54,712 nucleotides of DNA from Elusimicrobiota bacterium (lineage in GTDB: Bacteria; Elusimicrobiota; Elusimicrobia; Elusimicrobiales; UBA9959). The stretch lies in assembly GCA_027340875.1 (NCBI GenBank), contig DAIENX010000102.1:1-54712 (forward strand), in the 5' to 3' direction. A program made the translations under genes and the position numbers. Shown piece after piece: positions 1,804 through 34,717 of this stretch. The notes beneath the pieces are model-generated. The model saw only the letters and a list, made by a program, of their open reading frames with translations. It did not search any database and was not told the DNA's origin. Numbering within the stretch: position 1 is the first letter of the stretch; every line of letters begins with the position of its first letter.

Positions 1804-3498
1804 ATGCTGAGAACAATCCTGGCCCTGCTGCTTTCTTCGCTGCCCGCCATTGCCGGCGCCGCCCAGCCCGCCGACCCGGTAATGGACGCCCTTTCCAAGG
1901 AGCTGGACCGCTCCTTCAGCGGCCTTAAGAAGGCCGAGAAGGTGCCGCTCTATTATCTGGGCTACGAGCTGACGGTCTCCACCTACCACCAGATATCGGC
2001 CAAACTCGGTGCGCTGGAATACGACGGCGGCTCCGCCGGCGCCAAGCTGGACATAGACATGCGCGTCAATACGATGGAGCTGGACAATACCCACCAGGTG
2101 AAGGGCTCCTCCGCCTGGGGCAGCTACAGCCAGTCCCAGAACCTGCCCGTGGCGCTGGACGGCGACGAGGACGCGATACGCGCGCGCCTCTGGCAGTACA
2201 CCGACAAGGCCTACAAGGCCGCGCAGGAGAAATTCACGAAGGTCAAGATGAACAAGGCCGTCACGGCCGAGGAGGACGACCCGTCCCCCGACTTCTCCGC
2301 GGCCCCGCCCGAGAAGTTCTACGAGACGGTCACGCTCAAGCAGCCGGACCTGGCCGCCTGGCGCGACCGCCTGAAGAGGCTGTCGGCCAGGTTCGAGGGC
2401 TATCCGTTCATCTACGACTCCGGCGTCTGGCTCAGCTGGGAGAACCAGAACAGGTACCTGGTCAACAGCGACGGCACCCGCGTCAAGACCGGCAACAACT
2501 ACATAGTGCTGGGCTACTCGCTGATGAGCCGCACCACCGACGGCATGGACCTCACCCGCGGCGAGCGCTACGCCGGCTCGGACTTCTCCGACCTGCCTTC
2601 CGACGACAGGATCATCGCCGACATGGACCGCTCCATAAAGGAGCTGAAGGCGCTGCTCGCCGCGCCGGTGGTGGACCCGTACAGCGGCCCTGCCATACTG
2701 AACGCCCGCGCCGCCGCGGTCTACTTCCACGAGATCATAGGCCACAGGCTGGAGGGCCACAGGCAGAAGCAGGAGGACTCCGGCCAGACCTTCGCCAAGA
2801 AGGTGGGCCAGAAGGTGACCTCCGACATCATCACCCTCTACGACGACCCTGCCGTCAGGGACTTCCGCGGCATACCGCTGCGCGGCTACTACCGCTACGA
2901 CGACGAGGGCGTGAAGGCCCGGCGCGCCGGGTTGGTGGACCACGGCGTGCTGAAGGGCTTCCTGATGAGCCGTTCCCCTATACGGGGCTTCTCCGCCTCC
3001 AACGGCCACGGCCGGCGCGAGGCCGGCAACGAGGTGGTCTCGCGCATGGGCAACACCATCGTCGAGGCCTCCACCTCGGTGTCCTACGCGCAATTGCGCG
3101 GGATGCTGATAGAGGAATGCAAGAAGCAGGGCAAGCCTTTCGGCCTGGTGTTCGACGACATCTCCGGCGGCTTCACCAGGACCAGCCGCGGCAGCGGCCA
3201 GACCTTCAAGGTGCTGCCACTGCTGGTCTACAGGGTCTACACCGACGGCAGGCCCGACGAGGTGGTGCGCGGCGTGGACATAGTGGGCACGCCGCTGACC
3301 AGCTTCAGCAAGATAGAGGCCGCCGCCGATGACCCGGACGTGTTCAACGGCACCTGCGGCGCCGAGTCCGGCTGGGTGCCGGTCTCGGCCGTCTCGCCCA
3401 GCCTGCTGCTGGGAGAGATAGAGGTGGAGAAGTCGCAGAAGTCGCAGCAGAAGCAGCCGGTGCTGCCTCCGCCGACGCCGGAAAAGGGGGCGAAATGA
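1804..3498 (+). CDS. tldD: TldD-family metalloprotease with signal peptide
   Basis: HEIIGH zinc motif, YDDEG, SNGHGR...RMGN, C-terminal TCGAESG Cys; RBS ggagga; N-terminal hydrophobic signal. Confidence 0.85.
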   Translation: MLRTILALLLSSLPAIAGAAQPADPVMDALSKELDRSFSGLKKAEKVPLYYLGYELTVSTYHQISAKLGALEYDGGSAGAKLDIDMRVNTMELDNTHQVKGSSAWGSYSQSQNLPVALDGDEDAIRARLWQYTDKAYKAAQEKFTKVKMNKAVTAEEDDPSPDFSAAPPEKFYETVTLKQPDLAAWRDRLKRLSARFEGYPFIYDSGVWLSWENQNRYLVNSDGTRVKTGNNYIVLGYSLMSRTTDGMDLTRGERYAGSDFSDLPSDDRIIADMDRSIKELKALLAAPVVDPYSGPAILNARAAAVYFHEIIGHRLEGHRQKQEDSGQTFAKKVGQKVTSDIITLYDDPAVRDFRGIPLRGYYRYDDEGVKARRAGLVDHGVLKGFLMSRSPIRGFSASNGHGRREAGNEVVSRMGNTIVEASTSVSYAQLRGMLIEECKKQGKPFGLVFDDISGGFTRTSRGSGQTFKVLPLLVYRVYTDGRPDEVVRGVDIVGTPLTSFSKIEAAADDPDVFNGTCGAESGWVPVSAVSPSLLLGEIEVEKSQKSQQKQPVLPPPTPEKGAK

Positions 3499-5183
3499 GG
3501 AACAAGACCATGAGAACCGCGCCTATATACGCTCTCGCCCTTGCCTCCGTTCTCGCCGCCGGGGCCTCCGCCTCTCTCCCCGAGGGGGACAAGGTCTTCG
3601 CGGCCATGAAGGACGAGATGGCCCGCTCGATGGCCAGCCTGGACATGGACAACCTCGGCAAGCCGTACTTCATGTCCTACCGCATAGAGGACGGCCACAG
3701 CTTCTCGGTGTCCGCCAGCTTCGGCGGCCTGGAGCAGGAGTACTCCGGGGACTACCGCCGCCTGCAGGCGGACCTGCGCGTGGGCTCGCCCAAGTTCGAC
3801 AACAGCCATTTCGCCTCCACCGCCTGGGGGGAGTACCGCACCGAGTCCGACGGCGCGGTCTCGCTGGACGACAACTACGACGCGCTGCGCTTCGCGCTGT
3901 GGAGCGTGACCGACCGGGCCTACAAGAAGGCCCTCGAGACCCTCTCCAAGAAGAAGGCCTTCGTGGAGTCGCGCAACATCACCGAGCTCTACGACGACCA
4001 GAGCCCCGAGCCCGTGCACGAGCTCTACAGGCCGGCGCCGGTGGAGCGCCTGGACGAGGACCAGTGGAAGAAGGATATCGTGGAGATATCGAAGGTCTTC
4101 CTGAAGTACCCGGCCGTCCGCTATTCCGCCGTCAGCGTCGGCTTCAGCTCGGGCGGCGACCGCTTCCTGAACAGCGAGGGTTCCGCCTACCGGCAGCCCT
4201 CCTGCTCCGGCTCCGTCTCCATCAGCGTCTCCGGCTACGCGCCGGACGGCTTCAGGCTGAACGACTCCTACAGCGAGAGCTTCTGCCTGGCCAAGGACGC
4301 GCCTCCCCGGGAGCGGCTGCTGGCCAAGGCGCGCGAGCTGGGCGAGAACATGACGAAGATGGGCAAGTCGGTCACGCTGAAGGCCTACATAGGGCCGGTG
4401 CTGTTCGAGGGTGAGGCCGCCGGCGAGTTCTTCGAGAACCTGCTGGTCAACAACGTGGCCAACCCGCGCGAGGTCTGGACCGAGAAGAGCCGCTGGTACC
4501 AGGACGGCGTGCTGCGCCGCGCCGGCCAGCTGGTGGAGCGCCTCGGCATGCGCGTGACCTCTCCTTTCCTCAACGTCACGGACGATCCGCTGGCCCGTTA
4601 TTACGACGGCCGCCCGCTGGCCGGCTTCTACGAGATGGACGACGAGGGCGTGCCGGCCCGGAAGATAGAGCTCGTCACCAAGGGCAAGCTGACCGACTAT
4701 TACCGCTCGCGCGCCGCCACCCGCGACTTTTCCGGTTCCAACGGCCACGGCCGCGGCGGCCTGGACGAGTACCCGGAGGGCTCGCCGGCCAACGTGTTCA
4801 TCGTGCCGGAGAAGAACCCCGCCCGCGTGATGCCGCTGGCCGAGCTTAAGAAGAAGTTCATGGCCCTCTGCAGGGAGGAGGAGCTGGACTACTGCATCCG
4901 GGTGGACAGCCTGAACGGCCTGGGCGGCCCGTTCGCCGCGTGGAAGGTCTACGCGGACGGCCGCGAGGAGCCGGTGCACGGCATAGAGTTCACCGGCGTC
5001 ACGCTGCGCTCGCTGCGCGATATCGCCGCGGTCTCCACCGAGGAGGGCGTGTACGGCCTGAACTGGACCACCCCGGGCTCGCTGGTGGCTCCCTCCATAC
5101 TGGTGGTCGAGATGGAGATAAAGAAGAGCGAGCAGAAGCCCGAAAAGCTCCCCTACCTGCCGAACCCTTACTTCGCCAGGTGA
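3495..5183 (+). CDS. TldE/PmbA-like partner subunit with signal peptide
   Basis: Paralogous to the upstream TldD (MDDEGV, SNGHGR) but lacks HExxxH; ATGA overlap. Confidence 0.8.
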   Translation: MRNKTMRTAPIYALALASVLAAGASASLPEGDKVFAAMKDEMARSMASLDMDNLGKPYFMSYRIEDGHSFSVSASFGGLEQEYSGDYRRLQADLRVGSPKFDNSHFASTAWGEYRTESDGAVSLDDNYDALRFALWSVTDRAYKKALETLSKKKAFVESRNITELYDDQSPEPVHELYRPAPVERLDEDQWKKDIVEISKVFLKYPAVRYSAVSVGFSSGGDRFLNSEGSAYRQPSCSGSVSISVSGYAPDGFRLNDSYSESFCLAKDAPPRERLLAKARELGENMTKMGKSVTLKAYIGPVLFEGEAAGEFFENLLVNNVANPREVWTEKSRWYQDGVLRRAGQLVERLGMRVTSPFLNVTDDPLARYYDGRPLAGFYEMDDEGVPARKIELVTKGKLTDYYRSRAATRDFSGSNGHGRGGLDEYPEGSPANVFIVPEKNPARVMPLAELKKKFMALCREEELDYCIRVDSLNGLGGPFAAWKVYADGREEPVHGIEFTGVTLRSLRDIAAVSTEEGVYGLNWTTPGSLVAPSILVVEMEIKKSEQKPEKLPYLPNPYFAR

Positions 5184-5187
5184 CCGG

Positions 5188-6003
5188 ATGAAGCCCCTCT
5201 CCCTCAAGTTCGCCGCCGCGCTCGTGCTGGGCGCGGCGCTGGCCTCGGCGGCGGGGAGAGGGGACTACGTCTTCTACTACACCCCCGAATACCTTCGCTT
5301 CAGGAAGAGGATAGTGGACGAGTTCAAGAAGACGCCGGCCGGCCGTTTCAGCGAGTTCGCGCACCGCTCCCGGGCCGACAAGGGCGCCGAGCATAAGGTG
5401 ATAGCGCTGACCTTCGACGCCTGCACCGGCAAGCCCGGCGGCTACAACAAGGAGCTGATAGACTACCTGCGCGAGGAGAGGATCCCCGCCACGCTGTTCG
5501 TAACCGGCGTCTGGATAGACCGCAACAAGGAGACCTTCGCGGAGCTCTCGAAGGACCCGCTGTTCGAGATAGAGAACCACGGCCTGCTGCACCGGCTCTG
5601 CTCCACCAGCGGGCGCACGATGTACGGCGTGCGCTCCACCATGGACCTCTCCGGGGTGATAGACGAGATGGAGCTGAACGCCCGCAAGATACAGCAGCTC
5701 ACCGGGCGCAGGCCCGTCTTCTTCCGCTCCGCCACCGCCTACACCGACGACCTCTCGCGAAAGGTGGCCGAGCGCCTCGGCATGGAGGTGGTCAGCTACG
5801 ACGTGCTCTCCGGGGACGCGATGAAGGACGACGCCGCGAAGATCAGCCGCAATATACTCTCCGGCGCCCGCCACGGCGCCGTGGTCATCATGCACTTCAA
5901 CCACCCGGAGTGGCCGGAGGTCGCGGCGCTGAAACTGGCCGTGCCGGAGCTGCGCAAGCGCGGTTTCAACTTCGGCCGCCTCGACAGCTTCACGTTGCGC
6001 TGA
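5188..6003 (+). CDS. Polysaccharide deacetylase (NodB/CE4), exported
   Basis: ALTFDAC, IENHG..H, FFR, VIMH motifs; signal peptide. Confidence 0.85.
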   Translation: MKPLSLKFAAALVLGAALASAAGRGDYVFYYTPEYLRFRKRIVDEFKKTPAGRFSEFAHRSRADKGAEHKVIALTFDACTGKPGGYNKELIDYLREERIPATLFVTGVWIDRNKETFAELSKDPLFEIENHGLLHRLCSTSGRTMYGVRSTMDLSGVIDEMELNARKIQQLTGRRPVFFRSATAYTDDLSRKVAERLGMEVVSYDVLSGDAMKDDAAKISRNILSGARHGAVVIMHFNHPEWPEVAALKLAVPELRKRGFNFGRLDSFTLR

Positions 6004-6075
6004 CGCCGGGCGAAGGCCGGTTTTAATGTTCCAGAATATTATGGCCTGTCACGGATAAGCCGCATAGCGGCTTTC

Positions 6076-6122
6076 CTGGCCTATGGCCGTGCCGCATCGG
6101 AAGCTATGCTTATCAAGCGGCC
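6076..6122. repeat. 47-bp dispersed repeat, copy 1 (copy 2 at 22318-22364)
   Basis: ctggcctatggccgtgccgcatc...gctatgc..atcaagcggcc; 42/47 identical by manual alignment. Confidence 0.8.
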
Positions 6123-6258
6123 GCGGCCCCGGCGGGGAACTGTCGCTGTGCGCTGTCACAGCGCACAGCTCCATCCGGCGTTTTCGCTTGCGATGAAAAC
6201 GCCTTGCGGCCAGTTATGAGGCATAAATATGCCTCATAAAAAAATCTGGCCTCACCCC

Positions 6259-6287
6259 TTGACAAGTCAACTTTCGTCTGTTATATT
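6259..6287 (+). promoter_or_regulatory. Near-consensus sigma70 promoter
   Basis: TTGACA-17-TATATT with TG extension; -35 lies within the palindrome ttgacaagtcaa; perfect 12-bp-arm palindrome upstream at 6214-6239. Confidence 0.75.
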
Positions 6288-6293
6288 ACTTAT

Positions 6294-6664
6294 GTAGTCT
6301 TGCTCTCTTAATGGTGCGCCGGCGGTCTCAGTAGCGGTTTCGGTCGCGGTGTCGGGGTTCGGCCCCGCCCGGCGCGTGTCTCCCCCAGGTTCGCGGCCCG
6401 CTCTCGCGCGGCGTCTTGCGGCGCCCGCTTCGGTCCGGCGGTGCGGCGTTCCGGGGAGTGTCTTGGCCCGTCTCCCGCCGTTGCGGCGGCGCGCGGCCGG
6501 GTTCCTGGTGAGGCGGCCCGCCCGGCGCGGCGGCGTCCCTACCCCTGGGTCGGTGACCGGCTGTCCGGTTGCCCGTGTGCGGTGTGCGTTGCGGTCGCGG
6601 TAAAAACTAGAGTACGGCTTCGGCCGATAGAGAAGAGCCCCCTTAGCTGGGGGCTCTCTTTTTT
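6294..6664 (+). ncRNA. Candidate structured, adenine-depleted non-coding RNA (unknown family)
   Basis: Lies between a strong promoter and a plus-strand intrinsic terminator; only 5 A in 6334-6601; multiple hairpins with G-U pairs and UUCG-type loops. Confidence 0.5.
6634..6664 (+). terminator. Intrinsic terminator (may also serve the convergent ehr operon)
   Basis: agagccccc-ttagct-gggggctct followed by ctttttt. Confidence 0.8.
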
Positions 6665-6668
6665 GCGC

Positions 6669-7397
6669 TTATTCTATCCTTCCCAGCAGCCTCAGCAGGC
6701 CGTCCAGGATGGTCAGCGGGTGAGGAGGGCAGCCGGGTATGTAAAGGGATACCGGTATGTCCGCGGGCAGGCCGGCGCATTCCTGGTGGCCCGCGTAGGG
6801 CCCGCCGCCTATCGCGCAGGCCCCGCAGGCTATGGCCACCCTGGGCGAGGGCATGGCGTCCCAGGTCTTTCGCAGGGCTAGCTCCATGTTCTTCGTCACC
6901 GGGCCGGTGACCAGCAGGCCGTCGGCGTGGCGGGGGGAGGCGACGAACTGTATGCCGAACCTGCCCATGTCCCAGCCCACCGTGCCCAGCACATTGCAGT
7001 CGGCCTCGCAGGCGTTGCAGCCGCCGGCGCTGACCTGCCGCAGCTTGAACGAGCGGCCGAAAAGCCGCCTCAGCTCGGCGCCGAGGGCTTCTGCCCGGGC
7101 GTGGTCGCCGGAATTCACTTCCAGGCCGGCCCGCGAGGAGGCGCAGAGCCGGTAGTCGCGGGAGAACTCCACCGCGGCGGGGTCGGCCTTCGCGCAGGCG
7201 CCGCAGAAGACGCAGCGGCCCAGGTCCAGCCCGGCCCCGCCTATGGCCCCGTAGGGGCAGGCGGCCGCGGCCTTCTCCAGGCGCGCGGACCTCACCTTCG
7301 GCAGGCCGAGGGCCCGGTGCGGCAGCTGCAGGCCTTCCGCGGGGAACTTCATCGTGCGGTGCCCCTGCTTCAGGCGCTCGAACAGGGCTTTTATCAC
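6669..7397 (-). CDS. Ehr/Hyf small subunit (NuoB/HycG-like) fused to an N-terminal 4Fe-4S domain
   Basis: GTG start overlapping the upstream stop (GTGA); CPYGAI, CVFCGAC, GGCNACE, SPRHAD, GCPP. Confidence 0.85.
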   Translation of the reverse strand: MIKALFERLKQGHRTMKFPAEGLQLPHRALGLPKVRSARLEKAAAACPYGAIGGAGLDLGRCVFCGACAKADPAAVEFSRDYRLCASSRAGLEVNSGDHARAEALGAELRRLFGRSFKLRQVSAGGCNACEADCNVLGTVGWDMGRFGIQFVASPRHADGLLVTGPVTKNMELALRKTWDAMPSPRVAIACGACAIGGGPYAGHQECAGLPADIPVSLYIPGCPPHPLTILDGLLRLLGRIE

Positions 7398-11246: not shown

Positions 11247-12151
11247 TATCTCCCCAGCTGGAATATCAGCGCCAGCGCCGCGAAAGCGAAAGCCGTTATC
11301 AGCATGTAGGGTACCTTCAGCAGGCGCAGGCGGGCCATGGCCGACTCCGTCACGCCCACCGCGCCGGTCACGCCCAGCATAACGCCAAGGTAGAGCGCGC
11401 CCTCGTACGCGCCGCCGCCGGCGCGCGGCAGCAGCATGCCCGCTATCAGCGAGCTGAACAGCCAGAGCTTGAGCGCCGCCCCGTAAAGTATGCAGGCCAG
11501 GTCCGGGCCGCTGTGGTCCAGCACCATGACCTCGTGTATCATCGTCAGTTCCAGGTGCGTGTTCGGGTCGTCGGCCGGCACGCGGGAGTTCTCGGCCAGC
11601 AGCACTATGAAGAGCGAGGCCGTCAGCAGGGCCAGCACCGGCGCCGCGGTGCGCCAGGTGTCGCCCGTGAGCGCAGCGAATATCCCGGAGAAGGACAGGC
11701 TGCCGGTGATGTGCGCCAGCGCGGCCAGGCACAGGAAGAAGGCGGGCTCGGCGAAGACCGCGAACTGCATCTCGCGGCTGGCCCCCATCCCCTCGAAGGC
11801 CGAGCCCGTGTCCAGCGCGGCCAGCACGGTCAGGAACCTCGCCAGCCCCAGCAGGTAGACCACCAGCACCAGGTCCCCCTCGAAGCCGAACAGCGGGCCG
11901 GCGCCGGCGAAAGGCAGCGCGGCCGCGGCCGCCAGCAGGGCCGCCAGGCCCGCGGCCGGCGAGGCGCGGAACACCCAGGTGGTGGTGCGGCTGTACACCG
12001 GCGTCTTGCCGGCCAGCTTGAAGAGGTCGTAGTAGAGCTGCAGCAGCGGCTGGCCGCGGCGCCCGCCGAAGAAGGCCTTCACGCGGTTTATCACTCCCGG
12101 CAGCAGCGGGGCGAGGAGCAGCGCGGCCAGGAAATGCAGGGCGGGCCTCAT
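11246..12151 (-). CDS. hyfC: NuoH/HyfC/HycD-like membrane subunit
   Basis: Starts MRPALHF (ATGA overlap); GRRGQPLLQLYYDLFKL, GMGASRE, ENSRVPADDPNTHLELTMIHE. Confidence 0.85.
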   Translation of the reverse strand: MRPALHFLAALLLAPLLPGVINRVKAFFGGRRGQPLLQLYYDLFKLAGKTPVYSRTTTWVFRASPAAGLAALLAAAAALPFAGAGPLFGFEGDLVLVVYLLGLARFLTVLAALDTGSAFEGMGASREMQFAVFAEPAFFLCLAALAHITGSLSFSGIFAALTGDTWRTAAPVLALLTASLFIVLLAENSRVPADDPNTHLELTMIHEVMVLDHSGPDLACILYGAALKLWLFSSLIAGMLLPRAGGGAYEGALYLGVMLGVTGAVGVTESAMARLRLLKVPYMLITAFAFAALALIFQLGR

Positions 12152-14112
12152 AGCTTCCATAGCAGCAGCGCCAGCAGCGTCAGCACTATATAGAGGATAT
12201 AGATCTGCAGCCTCCCGTGCTGCAGCCAGGTGAAACGGTAGGCCAGCTCGCGCACGCGGTGCGCGGCCGGGCTGTAGATCTTGTTGTAGACCAGCGCCTG
12301 CGCCTCGGTGGAGAACGAGGCCCCGCTGGGGAAGTAGCCGCGTATCTCGGGCTCGCGGCCCAGGCTGCGCAGCAACGGCTGGAAGAAGTCGGTGAGCGGC
12401 TGCGAGAACGAGGAGGCTCCGTACTGCATGCGCGCGGTGGGCCTGGCGTAGCCGCAGTCCCAGGTGGGCCCCTCGGCGTAGCCGCGGCGGCACATCAGCC
12501 AGGCGCGCAGCGCGGCGGCCAGCGCCAGCAGCCCGCACAGCGCGGAGAAGCCGGCCGAGACGAAGGCCACCGGCAGGGCGGCCAGCGCGTACAGCGCGGC
12601 GCCGGCGCCCGGGAAAGCGGCGTCAGCCGCGTTGGCCAGCGGGAGCAGCAGGAAGGGGGAGAGGAGGCCGGCCGCCAGGCAGGCGGCGGCCAGCGCGTAC
12701 ATCGCGGCCAGCATCGGGGCGCCGGGGTCGTGGGCGGCCGAGCACTTCGTGGAGCGCGGCTCGCCCAGGAAGACCGAGCCGAAGGCCTTTGCGAAGCAGC
12801 CGCCGGCCAGCGCGCCCGCGGCCGCCAGCGCCAGCAGCGCGGCGGCGCCCCAGTGGGCGGTGGCCCGCCCGTCCAGCAGCGCGCGGAAGGCGGCCAGGTA
12901 GATCAGGAACTCGCCGACGAAGCCGTTGAAGGGCGGCAGCGCGGTGATGGAGGCCGAGCCGGCCAGGAAGCAGGCCGAAGTACGCGGCATCTTCTTCGAG
13001 AGGCCGCCCAGCGCCTCCAGCTCGCCCAGCCCGGCGGAATGTATGACGGCGCCGGCCCCCATGAACAGCAGGCCCTTGAACAGCGAATGGTTGAAGGCGT
13101 GCAGCAGCGCGCCGGCCAGGCCGAGCGCCGCCAGCGCCGCCGAGCCGCGGGAGAGCCCTATCATGCCGAGGCCCAGCCCCAGCAGTATGATGCCGATATT
13201 CTCTATGCTGGAATAGGCCAGCAGGCGCTTCAGGTCGTGCTGCGCCAGCGCGAACAGCACCCCGCCCAGCGCGGAGACGGCCCCCAGAACCAGCACCAGC
13301 GCGCCCCACCATTCCGGCCACGGCGCCAGGAAGCCCAGCGTCCTCAGCAGGCCGTACACGCCCATCTTTATCATCACGCCGCTCATCACGGCGGAGACGT
13401 GGCTGGGAGCGGCCGGGTGCGCCTCGGGCAGCCAGACGTGCAGCGGCATGAAGCCGGCCTTCAGGCCGAAGCCCGTCAGCGCGATCAGGAAGACGGCCGC
13501 GGCGCGGGCGCCGGTCGGGCGGAGGAAAGAGGAGAAGTCCAGCGAGCCCGAGGGCGCGGCCAGCAGGCCGAAGGCCGCCAGCAGCAGCAGCGCGCCGCCG
13601 GCGCCCACGGCCAGATAGATGAAGCCGGCCCTGCGGGCCTGCTTCTTTTCTCCTTCGAACAGCACCAGCAGGAAGGAGGAAAGCGCCATCAGCTCCCAGC
13701 CGGTCATGAACAGCACCGCGTTGGCGGCCAGCAGCACCAGCGCCATCGAGGCCGTCAGCAGGTTGAACTGCGCCCAGGCCGGCGCGGCGCGGCCGGAGGC
13801 CTCGTAGCGCTCCATGTAGCCCGCGCCGTAGACGGCGGCCAGGCCGGTCAGCAGGAACAGCGGCACCAGGAAGAAGGCGGCCAGCGGGTCCAGCGAAAGG
13901 GAGAGGGAGCCCATAGGCACCGGCCAGGGCAGCGACAGCGTCTCGGCGCGGCCGCTGAACAGCACGCCGGCCGCGGCGGGCAGGCCGGCCAGCGCGGCGC
14001 CCACGGCGCCTATAACGCCGAAAGCCCGCGCGCGGGCGGGGCTTCCACTGAAAGAAAGGGAGAGCGCGGAGCTGACTAGCAGCAGGGCCAGGGAGAATAG
14101 GACCAGGGGCAT
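12148..14112 (-). CDS. hyfB: Proton-conducting membrane subunit, HyfB-like
   Basis: WELMALSS, GFGLKAGFMPLHVWLPEAHPAAPSHVSA, KRLLAYSSIENIG, TWDCGY. Confidence 0.88.
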   Translation of the reverse strand: MPLVLFSLALLLVSSALSLSFSGSPARARAFGVIGAVGAALAGLPAAAGVLFSGRAETLSLPWPVPMGSLSLSLDPLAAFFLVPLFLLTGLAAVYGAGYMERYEASGRAAPAWAQFNLLTASMALVLLAANAVLFMTGWELMALSSFLLVLFEGEKKQARRAGFIYLAVGAGGALLLLAAFGLLAAPSGSLDFSSFLRPTGARAAAVFLIALTGFGLKAGFMPLHVWLPEAHPAAPSHVSAVMSGVMIKMGVYGLLRTLGFLAPWPEWWGALVLVLGAVSALGGVLFALAQHDLKRLLAYSSIENIGIILLGLGLGMIGLSRGSAALAALGLAGALLHAFNHSLFKGLLFMGAGAVIHSAGLGELEALGGLSKKMPRTSACFLAGSASITALPPFNGFVGEFLIYLAAFRALLDGRATAHWGAAALLALAAAGALAGGCFAKAFGSVFLGEPRSTKCSAAHDPGAPMLAAMYALAAACLAAGLLSPFLLLPLANAADAAFPGAGAALYALAALPVAFVSAGFSALCGLLALAAALRAWLMCRRGYAEGPTWDCGYARPTARMQYGASSFSQPLTDFFQPLLRSLGREPEIRGYFPSGASFSTEAQALVYNKIYSPAAHRVRELAYRFTWLQHGRLQIYILYIVLTLLALLLWKL

Positions 14113-14190
14113 TTTAGTCGACTGAATTTTTTGTTCAGCAGTGGGTCCGTTCTTCCCGTCGTAGTCGCAGCCTTAAAAGGAACTGCTTAT

Positions 14191-34482: not shown

Positions 34483-34717
34483 TTAGTTCTTCCCCCCATA
34501 AAAAAACGGGAAAGCGGGTTAATTCGCTTTCCCTGGATACACCGGATTAAGGTCCGGTCGTGGATACTTCGGGGCCAATTCCCCGAATTACAAGGAGACT
34601 ACAATTAAAGTTTAGCTGATAGTGGTTACGTGTGGAAGTGTCTTTGGACCTATTGGGTTCTGGGCCCTCGTTTTCCCGCAGTTGAATTCTCCCATTACTG
34701 GCGCAATTTCTTCCGGG

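Follow-up and report, generated by a model that had tools for sequence, protein, structure and literature searches.

A putative family of BoxA-led, nearly adenine-free non-coding RNA genes in groundwater Elusimicrobia

The locus and its transcription signals

The window analyzed here is a 54,712-nt stretch of contig DAIENX010000102.1 (assembly GCA_027340875.1) from an Elusimicrobiota bacterium; the genome that carries it, G000, is 92.45% complete, without an assembled 16S gene. At positions 6259-6664, flanked by genes for a polysaccharide deacetylase and a hydrogenase subunit, lies a promoter followed by an almost adenine-free body and a terminator, which an earlier note made from the letters alone had described as a transcription unit for a novel RNA. 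Our analysis indicates that this unit very probably belongs to a real, novel and clade-restricted family of structured non-coding RNA genes that are led by a BoxA-like element, are nearly free of A and are under selection against adenosine. The features of the locus are collected in Table 1.

Table 1. Features of the RNA gene and of the spacer 5′ of it, in window positions
Feature	Position	Strand	Remarks
Predicted transcript, ~371 nt	6294-6664	+	Start G6294 to terminator T-run; both ends predicted
A-depleted body	6334-6601	+	5 A in 268 nt; G 41.8%, C 36.6%, U 19.8%, A 1.9%
A/T-rich stretch cataaaaaaatc, UP-element position	6235-6246	+	~48-59 nt 5′ of predicted start
-35 hexamer TTGACA within palindrome TTGACAAGTCAA	6259-6270	+	Promoter scan
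Extended -10, TG-T-TATATT	6279-6287	+	TG before second hexamer; homologs displayed have CTGTTATAYT
BoxA-like element GCUCUCUUAAU (GCTCTCTTAAT)	6302-6312	+	~+9 to +19
5′ G/U-rich repeat segment GCGGUU UCGGUC GCGGUG UCGG	6335-6356	+	Includes first CGGTCGCGGT
Conserved hairpin GCGCGGCGUC-UUGC-GGCGCCCGC	6406-6428	+	Helix 5
Conserved core domain	6445-6561	+	Covariance model R1, 75.4 bits, E 1.2e-10
CCCGCC/GGCGG hairpin inside core	~6474-6489	+	
3′ G/U-rich repeat segment GUGUGCGGUGUGCGUUGCGGUCGCGGU	6575-6601	+	Includes second CGGTCGCGGT
A-rich linker AAAAACUAGAGUA	6602-6614	+	AGAG could pair with BoxA CUCU
Penultimate hairpin CGGC-UUCG-GCCG	6615-6626	+	Helix 12
Intrinsic terminator AGAGCCCCC-UUAGCU-GGGGGCUCU	6634-6664	+	Followed by C and UUUUUU
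Terminator-like hairpin in spacer	6005-6021		
12-bp inverted-repeat arms in spacer	6145-6169		
8-bp inverted-repeat arms in spacer	~6179-6203		
Inverted repeat ATGAGGCAT-AAAT-ATGCCTCAT	6216-6237		Directly 5′ of UP-like stretch

A promoter scan confirmed the near-consensus sigma-70 promoter of the earlier note (TTGACA-17-TATATT, 6259-6287), which scored 11/12 and has a TG preceding the -10 hexamer. Between 5900 and 7000 it was the one such site, compared with 0.2 expected from shuffled sequences. The palindromic 12-mer TTGACAAGTCAA is kept in the homologs displayed, and A/T-rich runs lie directly 5′ of the -35 hexamer in homologs too; the cataaaaaaatc stretch is a putative UP element. The predicted start is 7 nt past the -10 hexamer, at the onset of family conservation (TGTAGTC in alignment A1). 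At the other end, the U-tailed terminator that had been proposed on the plus strand was found as a stem of 9 pairs, 7 of them G-C, at 6634-6657 with CTTTTTT directly 3′. This helix (helix 13) is conserved, with the loop-closing pair being GC in 15 sequences and UA in 8, and the terminator module GAGCCCCC..GGGGGCTC occurs at only 3 sites in the genome, which are the window gene, its paralog and one other. A unit of promoter and intrinsic terminator, with consensus hexamers, 17-nt spacing, G+C hairpin and U-run, is present in the window and conserved across homologs.

The 12-mer TTGACAAGTCAA, which also served as a fixed part of the search pattern for the promoter-BoxA module described below, heads three other likely strong promoters in the genome (C21:40633 on the plus strand, C65:128465 and C81:24895 on the minus strand). 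One of them lies ahead of an open reading frame (ORF) whose start resembles a signal peptide. It is conceivable that a regulator binds the palindrome, or that it serves as a -35 element in both directions.

Adenine depletion of the body

The body at 6334-6601 has the composition A5 C98 G112 T53. Its five A, already counted in the earlier note, are the minimum over all 268-nt segments of the 54.7-kb stretch (mean 52.7, standard deviation 13.2). Genome-wide, 23 of 5,551,276 strand-specific segments of this length contain at most five of any one base, the body among them. The depletion of A is not a matter of chance, and it is not due to coding.

We compared the body with its homologs and with other RNAs. 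In 27 homologous elements the body contains 3-16 A per 241-321 nt, and in 44 elements its A content is 1.1-8.5% (median 3.8%), while the first 40 nt of the transcript contain 12.6% A and the last 75 nt contain 18.4%. These body values of 1-8.5% compare with 18% A genome-wide. A copy in a locus of 49% GC stays poor in A (15/261) and is U/G-rich instead. Other stable RNAs are not depleted: ribosomal RNA (rRNA) leaders of the same genus, 337-348 nt long and containing a BoxA, have 31-35% A, and in the same genome RNase P RNA (C52:20982-21350) has 22.2% and transfer-messenger RNA (tmRNA; C81:23522-23873) has 20.7%.

In the alignment of 44 sequences the majority base of the body columns is C in 87, G in 88 and T in 36. 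At least one sequence has A in 125 body columns; among these, A is the majority base in 1, is confined to three sequences or fewer in 95, and is a singleton in 54. Evidently A alleles arise at many positions, stay rare and do not persist. The rarity of A alleles, the low A of the copy at 49% GC and the normal A content of the rRNA leaders, RNase P RNA, tmRNA and the ends of the transcript itself point to selection against A rather than to mutation bias or GC content.

Other low-A or low-T segments exist in the genome, on contigs C1, C10, C11, C22 and C65 and at 12459-12730 of the window, and are less extreme than the RNA genes. T-poor segments lie on the plus strand of the window at 11702-14117 and at C1:22407-22739 and C11:27856-28204 of G000 (4-11 T per 200-268 nt). 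By eye, the former resemble one strand of coding sequence with biased composition, and the T-poor ones, which are also less extreme than the RNA genes, resemble low-complexity sequence that is coding or antisense to coding.

Family, paralogs and distribution

The unit was found by blastn in 24/24 other genomes of the same genus with 66-93% identity, and in 0/16 genomes from two other families of the order. Covariance model R1 of the core matched in genera g1 (38/42), g16 (3/3) and g17 (1/7); a further ten genera of the family, with 27 genomes, gave no match. When the phylum was sampled evenly, 3/151 genomes matched, all of them in family f1. The carriers are a small group of groundwater Elusimicrobia with 1-5 copies per genome; several genomes have 2-5 copies, some in tandem. 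In alignment A1 (27 sequences) all members are built alike: an A/T-rich upstream region is followed by TTGACAAGTCAA, CTGTTATAYT and a conserved start at TGTAGTCYTG-NTCTYT. Next come 240-320 nt of A-poor body, in which hairpins are conserved, and then a linker that contains A, a small hairpin and the terminator, GAGCCCCC-loop-GGGGGCTC.

We also searched for the promoter followed by TCTYT as a module. This promoter-BoxA module is present at 1-5 per genome in g1 (39/42), g15 (6/7), g16 (2/3) and g17 (5/7). In nine other genera, with 20 genomes, it was not found, and the pattern reversed as a control gave 0 matches. By this pattern the module marks a superfamily in four genera of one Elusimicrobiales family. 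The window genome has it exactly twice, at both A-poor RNA genes. For all distinct modules in the loci collected (60/60), the next 220 nt contain 0.5-10.9% A (median 3.2%; 58 below 10%), compared with a median of 22.3% upstream. An independent scan of metagenome contigs with the module pattern gave 103 stretches, of which 80 were retrieved and 72 were long enough for testing; 63/72 were below 10% A and 39/72 below 5%, and the 4 clear exceptions (24-39% A) are cases of the module joined to something else. Loci L030-L148, 119 stretches obtained with a GC-generic pattern and mostly chance matches in high-GC genomes, were left out of all counts.

The sequence of the window RNA itself is single-copy in the genome. 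A strongly diverged paralog is located at C13:15214-15584 on the minus strand of G000 (also L176:2215-2585, minus strand). Its promoter and terminator type are the same, it contains 2.5% A and a BoxA-like block, CGCTCTTTT, and R1 does not detect it. By blastn this paralog has matches in 53/80 genomes of the family; counted here are partial ones in g12, g15 and g17, and many that are short and fall on the shared promoter or terminator.

Neither the RNA nor the homolog loci tested matched a family of Rfam 15. Between 6000 and 6900 Rfam gave nothing at E<0.01 and up to E 10 only terminator-like chance matches, the best permissive match being ctRNA_p42d with 23.2 bits against a gathering score of 50; on 17 homolog loci Rfam gave 0 matches. 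The earlier suggestion of a novel non-coding RNA is supported by this result together with the conserved promoter, terminator and A depletion, the compensatory changes in helices and the lack of coding signals described below. Phage and plasmid records (blastn) and viral contigs (module pattern) also gave no match, and a mobile or phage origin was rejected on this ground. The full-text literature searched held no account of a natural RNA family whose defining trait is the exclusion of one base, and nothing pertinent on non-coding RNA in Elusimicrobia.

Conserved helices and coding potential

The plus strand has a minimum free energy (MFE) of -186.5 kcal/mol, compared with -158.4 for the minus strand. 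This difference of 28 kcal/mol, and G-U pairs that fit the plus strand only, bear out the better plus-strand pairing claimed for the unit. The impression of a highly structured RNA is for the most part due to composition, its MFE being no better than that of dinucleotide shuffles. Therefore the folding energy is regarded as an effect of G/C/U composition and was dropped as evidence.

Homologs were gathered for covariation, as the earlier note had proposed. The RNAalifold consensus has 55 pairs, and 95.2% of cells are paired, compared with 45.0-51.5% when the partners are slid by 1-3 columns. Changes on both sides are found in 13 pairs (51 cells); with slid partners the figures are 4-11 pairs and 6-20 cells. 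For several pairs most sequences have U-G or G-U, a pattern that again suits the plus strand only. Of two hairpins that had been named, ggcgtc-ttgc-ggcgcc is conserved with covariation as helix 5 (8 pairs, 5 of them changed on both sides, 92.3% of cells paired), but gcggt-ttcg-gtcgc lies in a variable region. In alignment A3 of the core (46 sequences) 96.0% of cells are paired versus 38.8-55.9% in slid controls, and two pairs of the CCCGCC/GGCGG hairpin show compensatory changes, 9 swaps from GC to CG and 8 changes of CG to AU or GC. Helix 12 has 96.1% of cells paired; at its outer pair, 12 sequences have UA, 8 have CG and 1 has GC.

A helix between leader and trailer, joining BoxA CUCU/CUUU with a 3′ AGAG/AAAG, is proposed tentatively. 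The MFE fold of the window RNA pairs transcript positions 8-13 with a six-nt stretch ending just 5′ of the penultimate hairpin, and BoxA CU[C/U]U is compatible with the 3′ A[N]AG in 22/27 motif-bearing elements; the other distinct elements examined are without the 3′ motif. Duplex folding gave a 5′/3′ closing helix that was inconsistent across the 44 elements. Such pairing would suggest an rRNA-like processing of the ends to an essentially A-free core.

Stop codons are impossible in all six frames of a sequence without A. The listed ORFs are therefore uninformative, and coding was judged from the homologs. Among pairs at least 80% identical, only 17/101 indels in the body have a length divisible by three. 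The three codon positions are similarly diverse (0.323, 0.296 and 0.305), without 3-periodicity, and no Pfam match was obtained for ORFs 6349-6603 and 6441-6881. The homologs do not show the protein-like pattern of conservation that the earlier note had regarded as telling against an RNA.

A probable BoxA and the mode of transcription

At about +8 the window RNA has TTGCTCTCTTAAT, which resembles TTTGCTCTCTAAAAAA. The latter sequence, which contains GCTCTCTAAAA, is present in 10/10 rRNA-operon leaders of the genus about 75 nt past the promoter, and the first seven bases of the BoxA-like element (GCUCUCU) are identical to this rRNA-leader block. Other members have TGATCTTTGA, TGTTCTCTTAAA or similar blocks, and the family-wide form is TG[ACGT]TCT[CT]T. 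The BoxA consensus GYTCTTTAANA is gamma-proteobacterial and may differ in other taxa (PMC5725501). Compared by eye, the rRNA BoxA of the genus agrees with this gamma-proteobacterial sequence at 10/11 positions, as do some homologs (GTTCTTTTAAA). The ten leaders of the genus (L163-L172) start from TTGACAAGG-N-GATAAGATT promoters, and a tRNA-like gene at C72:~1400 of G000 has a similar block, GCTGTTCTTTAAATG, directly after a TATACT -10.

Nus factors protect against termination by Rho, and their targets are not limited to rRNA genes; the same paper notes that it left non-coding RNAs out of account (PMC5725501). The genome encodes NusB (120.6 bits) and, in an open frame of 471 aa, a Rho RNA-binding domain (Rho_RNA_bind, 113.6 bits). 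We consider it likely that the conserved 5′ block is a BoxA and that the unit is a Nus-antiterminated unit for a stable RNA in the style of rRNA operons. A polymerase modified by NusB/NusE and resistant to Rho would transcribe it as rRNA is transcribed, which would result in high accumulation, and the A-containing leader and trailer may be processing signals. Like the rRNA-operon leaders, on which NusB/NusE/NusA/NusG/SuhB act, the unit has a strong promoter and then a BoxA-like block, yields a non-coding product and is present in multiple copies. Unlike them, it has no following rRNA or tRNA and ends at its own terminator ~370 nt on, its BoxA is at about +9 rather than +75, and its body has 1-8.5% A as against 31-35% in the leaders.

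Repeats and G/U-rich arrays

Two repeats had been pointed out in the body, and each occurs exactly twice at the places given. CGGTCGCGGT is found at 6341 and 6592 only (expected 0.26; two occurrences were reached in 3/100 shuffles) and CCCGCCCGGCGCG at 6364 and 6517 only (expected 0.07; 0/100 shuffles). The first brackets the A-free block as a direct repeat in the window copy, but this arrangement is not conserved among the 44 homologs. The longest word common to both ends of the body averages 8.5 nt, versus 7.2 in shuffles, and reaches at least 10 nt in just 10/44 homologs; the bracketing repeat was rejected as a conserved feature for this reason.

More characteristic are the G/U-rich segments in which the two copies of CGGTCGCGGT lie. 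The 5′ segment varies in length between homologs and is expanded in other copies, and the number of GCGGUY units in the 3′ segment differs among homologs (alignment columns 395-425). Over 44 family members GGT occurs 731 times versus 398 expected (1.84-fold), and GGT spacings of 5-10 nt were counted 300 times versus ~70 expected, about 4-fold over shuffles. These arrays, with GGU every 5-7 nt in GCGGUY, GGUCU and GGUUC forms, are the most variable and most characteristic parts of the RNA. They are greatly expanded in two tandem copies on contig G015:C90 (L159:2728-3216 and 3355-3857). The variants of genus g15 (L189-L191, L195, L196) consist mostly of GCGGU-type repeats, some with ~1 A in ~265 nt, and in one g15 copy GYGCGGU units follow one another in a long series. 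In all, the array units of the g15 and G015 variants are GCGGUY hexamers, GYGCGGU units and GGUCU/GGUUC pentamers. No G-quadruplex was present in the MFE structures of 4 family members when quadruplexes were allowed. The arrays, like the BoxA element and the paralogs, were absent from the earlier note.

A possible function and the rival explanations

The explanation that in our opinion best joins these results, and to which we give a little less than an even chance with its functional part included, is that 6259-6664 constitutes a gene of its own, whose product of ~370 nt is a stable non-coding RNA that may act by binding protein. On the functional part we are doubtful: by analogy, the RNA could be a scaffold or sponge that binds protein and is long-lived. 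In such an RNA the G/U-rich GCGGU-type arrays, whose number would expand and contract between copies, would be presented by a GC-clamped core. The known RNAs closest to such a function are CsrB/RsmZ (for CsrA/RsmE) and CrcZ (for Hfq/Crc), which likewise contain many copies of a short motif, varying in number between paralogs, and have their own strong promoter and terminator. Sponge RNAs belong to a size class of ~350-450 nt, similar to the window RNA. RsmZ has been called a ‘protein sponge’ (PMC13287468). The array of a short motif with copy number varying between paralogs was found in the present family as well, with expansion in L159 and L195. The motif differs, being G/U-rich and GCGGU-like rather than GGA or A-rich, and GGA is impossible without A. 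With 5 A in 268 nt the RNA does not have the multiple GGA of CsrB/RsmZ, and neither the CsrA nor the Hfq profile gave a match in the genome. In the literature searched we found nothing pertinent on bacterial systems of sequestration by GU-rich binding.

Why A should be excluded is a separate matter, and the proposal that exclusion makes an abundant RNA inert is again tentative. An A-free RNA cannot carry AUG, GGAGG or any stop codon; it would lack sites for A-dependent recognition by proteins or RNases and would have few A-mediated tertiary contacts. If it is inert through its missing A, it should therefore be long-lived. A further step, for which our confidence is somewhat lower still, is to regard the family as a natural class of ‘three-letter’ RNA made of G, C and U, in which adenosine is counter-selected so that an abundant RNA is invisible to everything that needs A, namely start and stop codons, Shine-Dalgarno pairing, A-minor packing, RNA-binding proteins that recognize A, and RNases or toxins specific for it. 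In that case the leader with BoxA and the A-rich trailer would serve merely as signals for transcription and processing, removed as the flanks of rRNA are, and the essentially A-free mature RNA would persist as a nuclease-proof scaffold in very slowly growing subsurface bacteria. Functional RNAs essentially from three of the four nucleotides are reportedly known from laboratory evolution of ribozymes with reduced alphabets, for instance a ligase ribozyme without cytidine. Those are artificial and without C; the window RNA is natural, conserved and without A.

Several points weigh against the scaffold or sponge and its premises. Transcription, the ends of the RNA, its abundance and its stability are predictions from sequence signals, and the 6 sequencing runs listed are all of DNA. 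The exclusion of A is left unexplained by a sponge function, and no sponge RNA, CsrB included, is known to exclude a nucleotide. The G/U-rich arrays may not be single-stranded, because MFE folds show them base-paired, either to C-rich segments or to one another. Compared by eye with the gamma-proteobacterial BoxA consensus, which may not be that of the host, the window element agrees at 8/11 positions. The plus-strand MFE has a z of +0.46 relative to dinucleotide shuffles, with 64/100 shuffles folding as well or better. The covariation is modest because the sequences are closely related, and part of the structure signal stems from composition; with related sequences, shuffle controls make results look more significant than they are. 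Given this kinship, the figures attest to compatibility and to some true covariation but do not prove a full structure. The residual A of the body in the 44 elements is preceded by C (37%), G (28%) and T (27%) in about the overall composition, without avoidance of pyrimidine-A steps. Resistance to RNases is not implied either, since enzymes of the RNase E/G type can cut U-rich sites without A; the genome encodes an RNase E/G-family protein, and the profile of the RNase Y N-terminal domain gave no match in it. Finally, at the loci examined the neighborhoods differ between lineages and point to no partner protein.

Other explanations of the missing A were considered. The one that overlaps most with an inert scaffold, which we think improbable, makes nuclease evasion primary: A would be excluded mainly to escape an A-specific endoribonuclease, for instance a toxin or a CRISPR-associated HEPN RNase, so that the RNA would outlast bulk RNA decay in dormancy or abortive infection and then act. 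Some HEPN and toxin RNases are A-specific, and evasion of such enzymes, which the earlier note had raised, would fit both the signs of selection against A, which are seen throughout apart from the terminal signal regions, and the normal A content of other RNAs in the same genomes. However, the residual A has no bias of dinucleotide context, a few copies tolerate 8-11% A, and A-containing hairpins such as CGAGAUGAUCUCG are inserted in some copies. Instead, the loss of A could be a mutational by-product, with strand-specific damage or editing (e.g. adenine deamination) stripping A from the non-template strand of a very highly transcribed unit; in favor of this, only one strand is depleted, and only within a transcribed unit whose promoter is very strong. 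Such an origin seems very unlikely: rRNA leaders with comparable promoters and BoxA have 31-35% A, C deaminates faster than A and yet makes up 36.6% of the body, the boundaries are sharp with transcribed 5′ and 3′ ends that keep 12.6% and 18.4% A, and the trait persists across genera and in the locus of 49% GC. We give even less credence to A-specific mutagenic reverse transcription as in diversity-generating retroelements (DGRs), or to a DRT2/Neo-like stop-free rolling-circle template between direct repeats. The lack of stop codons in six frames and the 10-nt direct repeat of the window copy (6341 and 6592) would suit such a system, but the RVT_1 profile had 0 matches in the genome (92.45% complete) and the bracketing repeat is not conserved, and both readings were set aside because of these two results. 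Moreover, the sequence is single-copy in the genome, variation among homologs is not confined to A sites, phage and plasmid records and viral contigs had no match, and the conserved helices and the BoxA point to a conventional stable RNA; the mutagenic copying suggested earlier is thus disfavored.

Two further readings concern the product itself. As a regulator of RNA polymerase of the 6S/Ms1 type or a decoy for Nus factors, the RNA would bind polymerase or NusB/NusE and modulate transcription in slow growth. It resembles 6S/Ms1 RNAs in being an independent non-coding RNA gene with a product that would be stable and probably abundant, and the rRNA-like promoter with BoxA, the multiple copies and the lack of a detected 6S RNA would agree with such a role. 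The 6S model gave no match in the genome at E up to 1, nor in 6000-6900, which is weak evidence of absence because the Rfam model is insensitive and detects 6S in 5/14 control genomes. The window RNA is twice as long as 6S RNA (187 model positions), its predicted folds are branched rather than a rod with a central bubble, and the exclusion of A is left unexplained, so that we consider this role unlikely. Least probable of all, to a degree that we regard as negligible, is a small gene for an Arg/Pro/Gly/Ala-rich peptide made from A-free codons, either ORF 6349-6603 (84 aa) or 6441-6881. Open frames do exist, but without A they are automatic, and AUG or a GGAGG-type ribosome-binding site is impossible inside the A-free block. 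The indels (17/101 multiples of three), the absence of codon periodicity and of a Pfam family, and the compensatory base-pair changes seen instead all speak against it.

A scaffold or sponge that is poor in A would be of interest beyond this phylum. Natural structured RNAs normally use adenosines for loops, junctions and tertiary contacts, and a conserved multi-copy RNA purged of A, across four genera and even in a lower-GC relative, challenges this expectation. It offers a handle on which processes ‘see’ RNA through its adenosines, such as translation, decay, global RNA-binding proteins and toxins. BoxA-type antitermination appears to act on a stable RNA other than rRNA in a barely studied phylum, and the G/U-rich arrays would point to an undiscovered RNA-binding partner where the Hfq and CsrA profiles gave no match. 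The promoter-BoxA module provides a simple signature, with ~100 further members in metagenomes. If the three-letter proposal is true, it would be a new design principle for bacterial RNAs and not merely a new family.

Neighboring genes and other features of the window

One lineage of the RNA is located downstream of the polysaccharide deacetylase gene, at 16 loci. At 10 loci in three genera (L021, L023, L024, L029, L150, L152-L154, L157, L160) the RNA is immediately downstream of recQ, and at 5 loci (L011, L013, L014, L016, L156) a UvrD/REP-type helicase gene is 1-2 kb away. The g15 copies lie downstream of a UvrD-like C-terminus, with a weak UvrD_C match at L190:1-633. Three RNA lineages thus adjoin genes for DNA helicases, which could be due to chance or to a link with R-loops or transcription-replication conflict at a highly transcribed GC-rich gene. 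The paralog lies between genes for a monomeric isocitrate dehydrogenase and NmrA/DUF2867.

The spacer of 255 nt between the deacetylase stop codon and the RNA promoter (6004-6258) holds the several inverted repeats of Table 1. In the closest homolog, in genome G023, where the RNA is 93% identical, the upstream sequence differs from this spacer. The Rfam model of the small bacterial signal recognition particle RNA gave no match in the genome. Over the whole window Rfam at the gathering score matched at a single place outside the RNA gene, a 2dG-II (2′-deoxyguanosine) riboswitch aptamer on the minus strand at 34528-34598, with 85.8 bits against a gathering score of 60 (E 5e-21).

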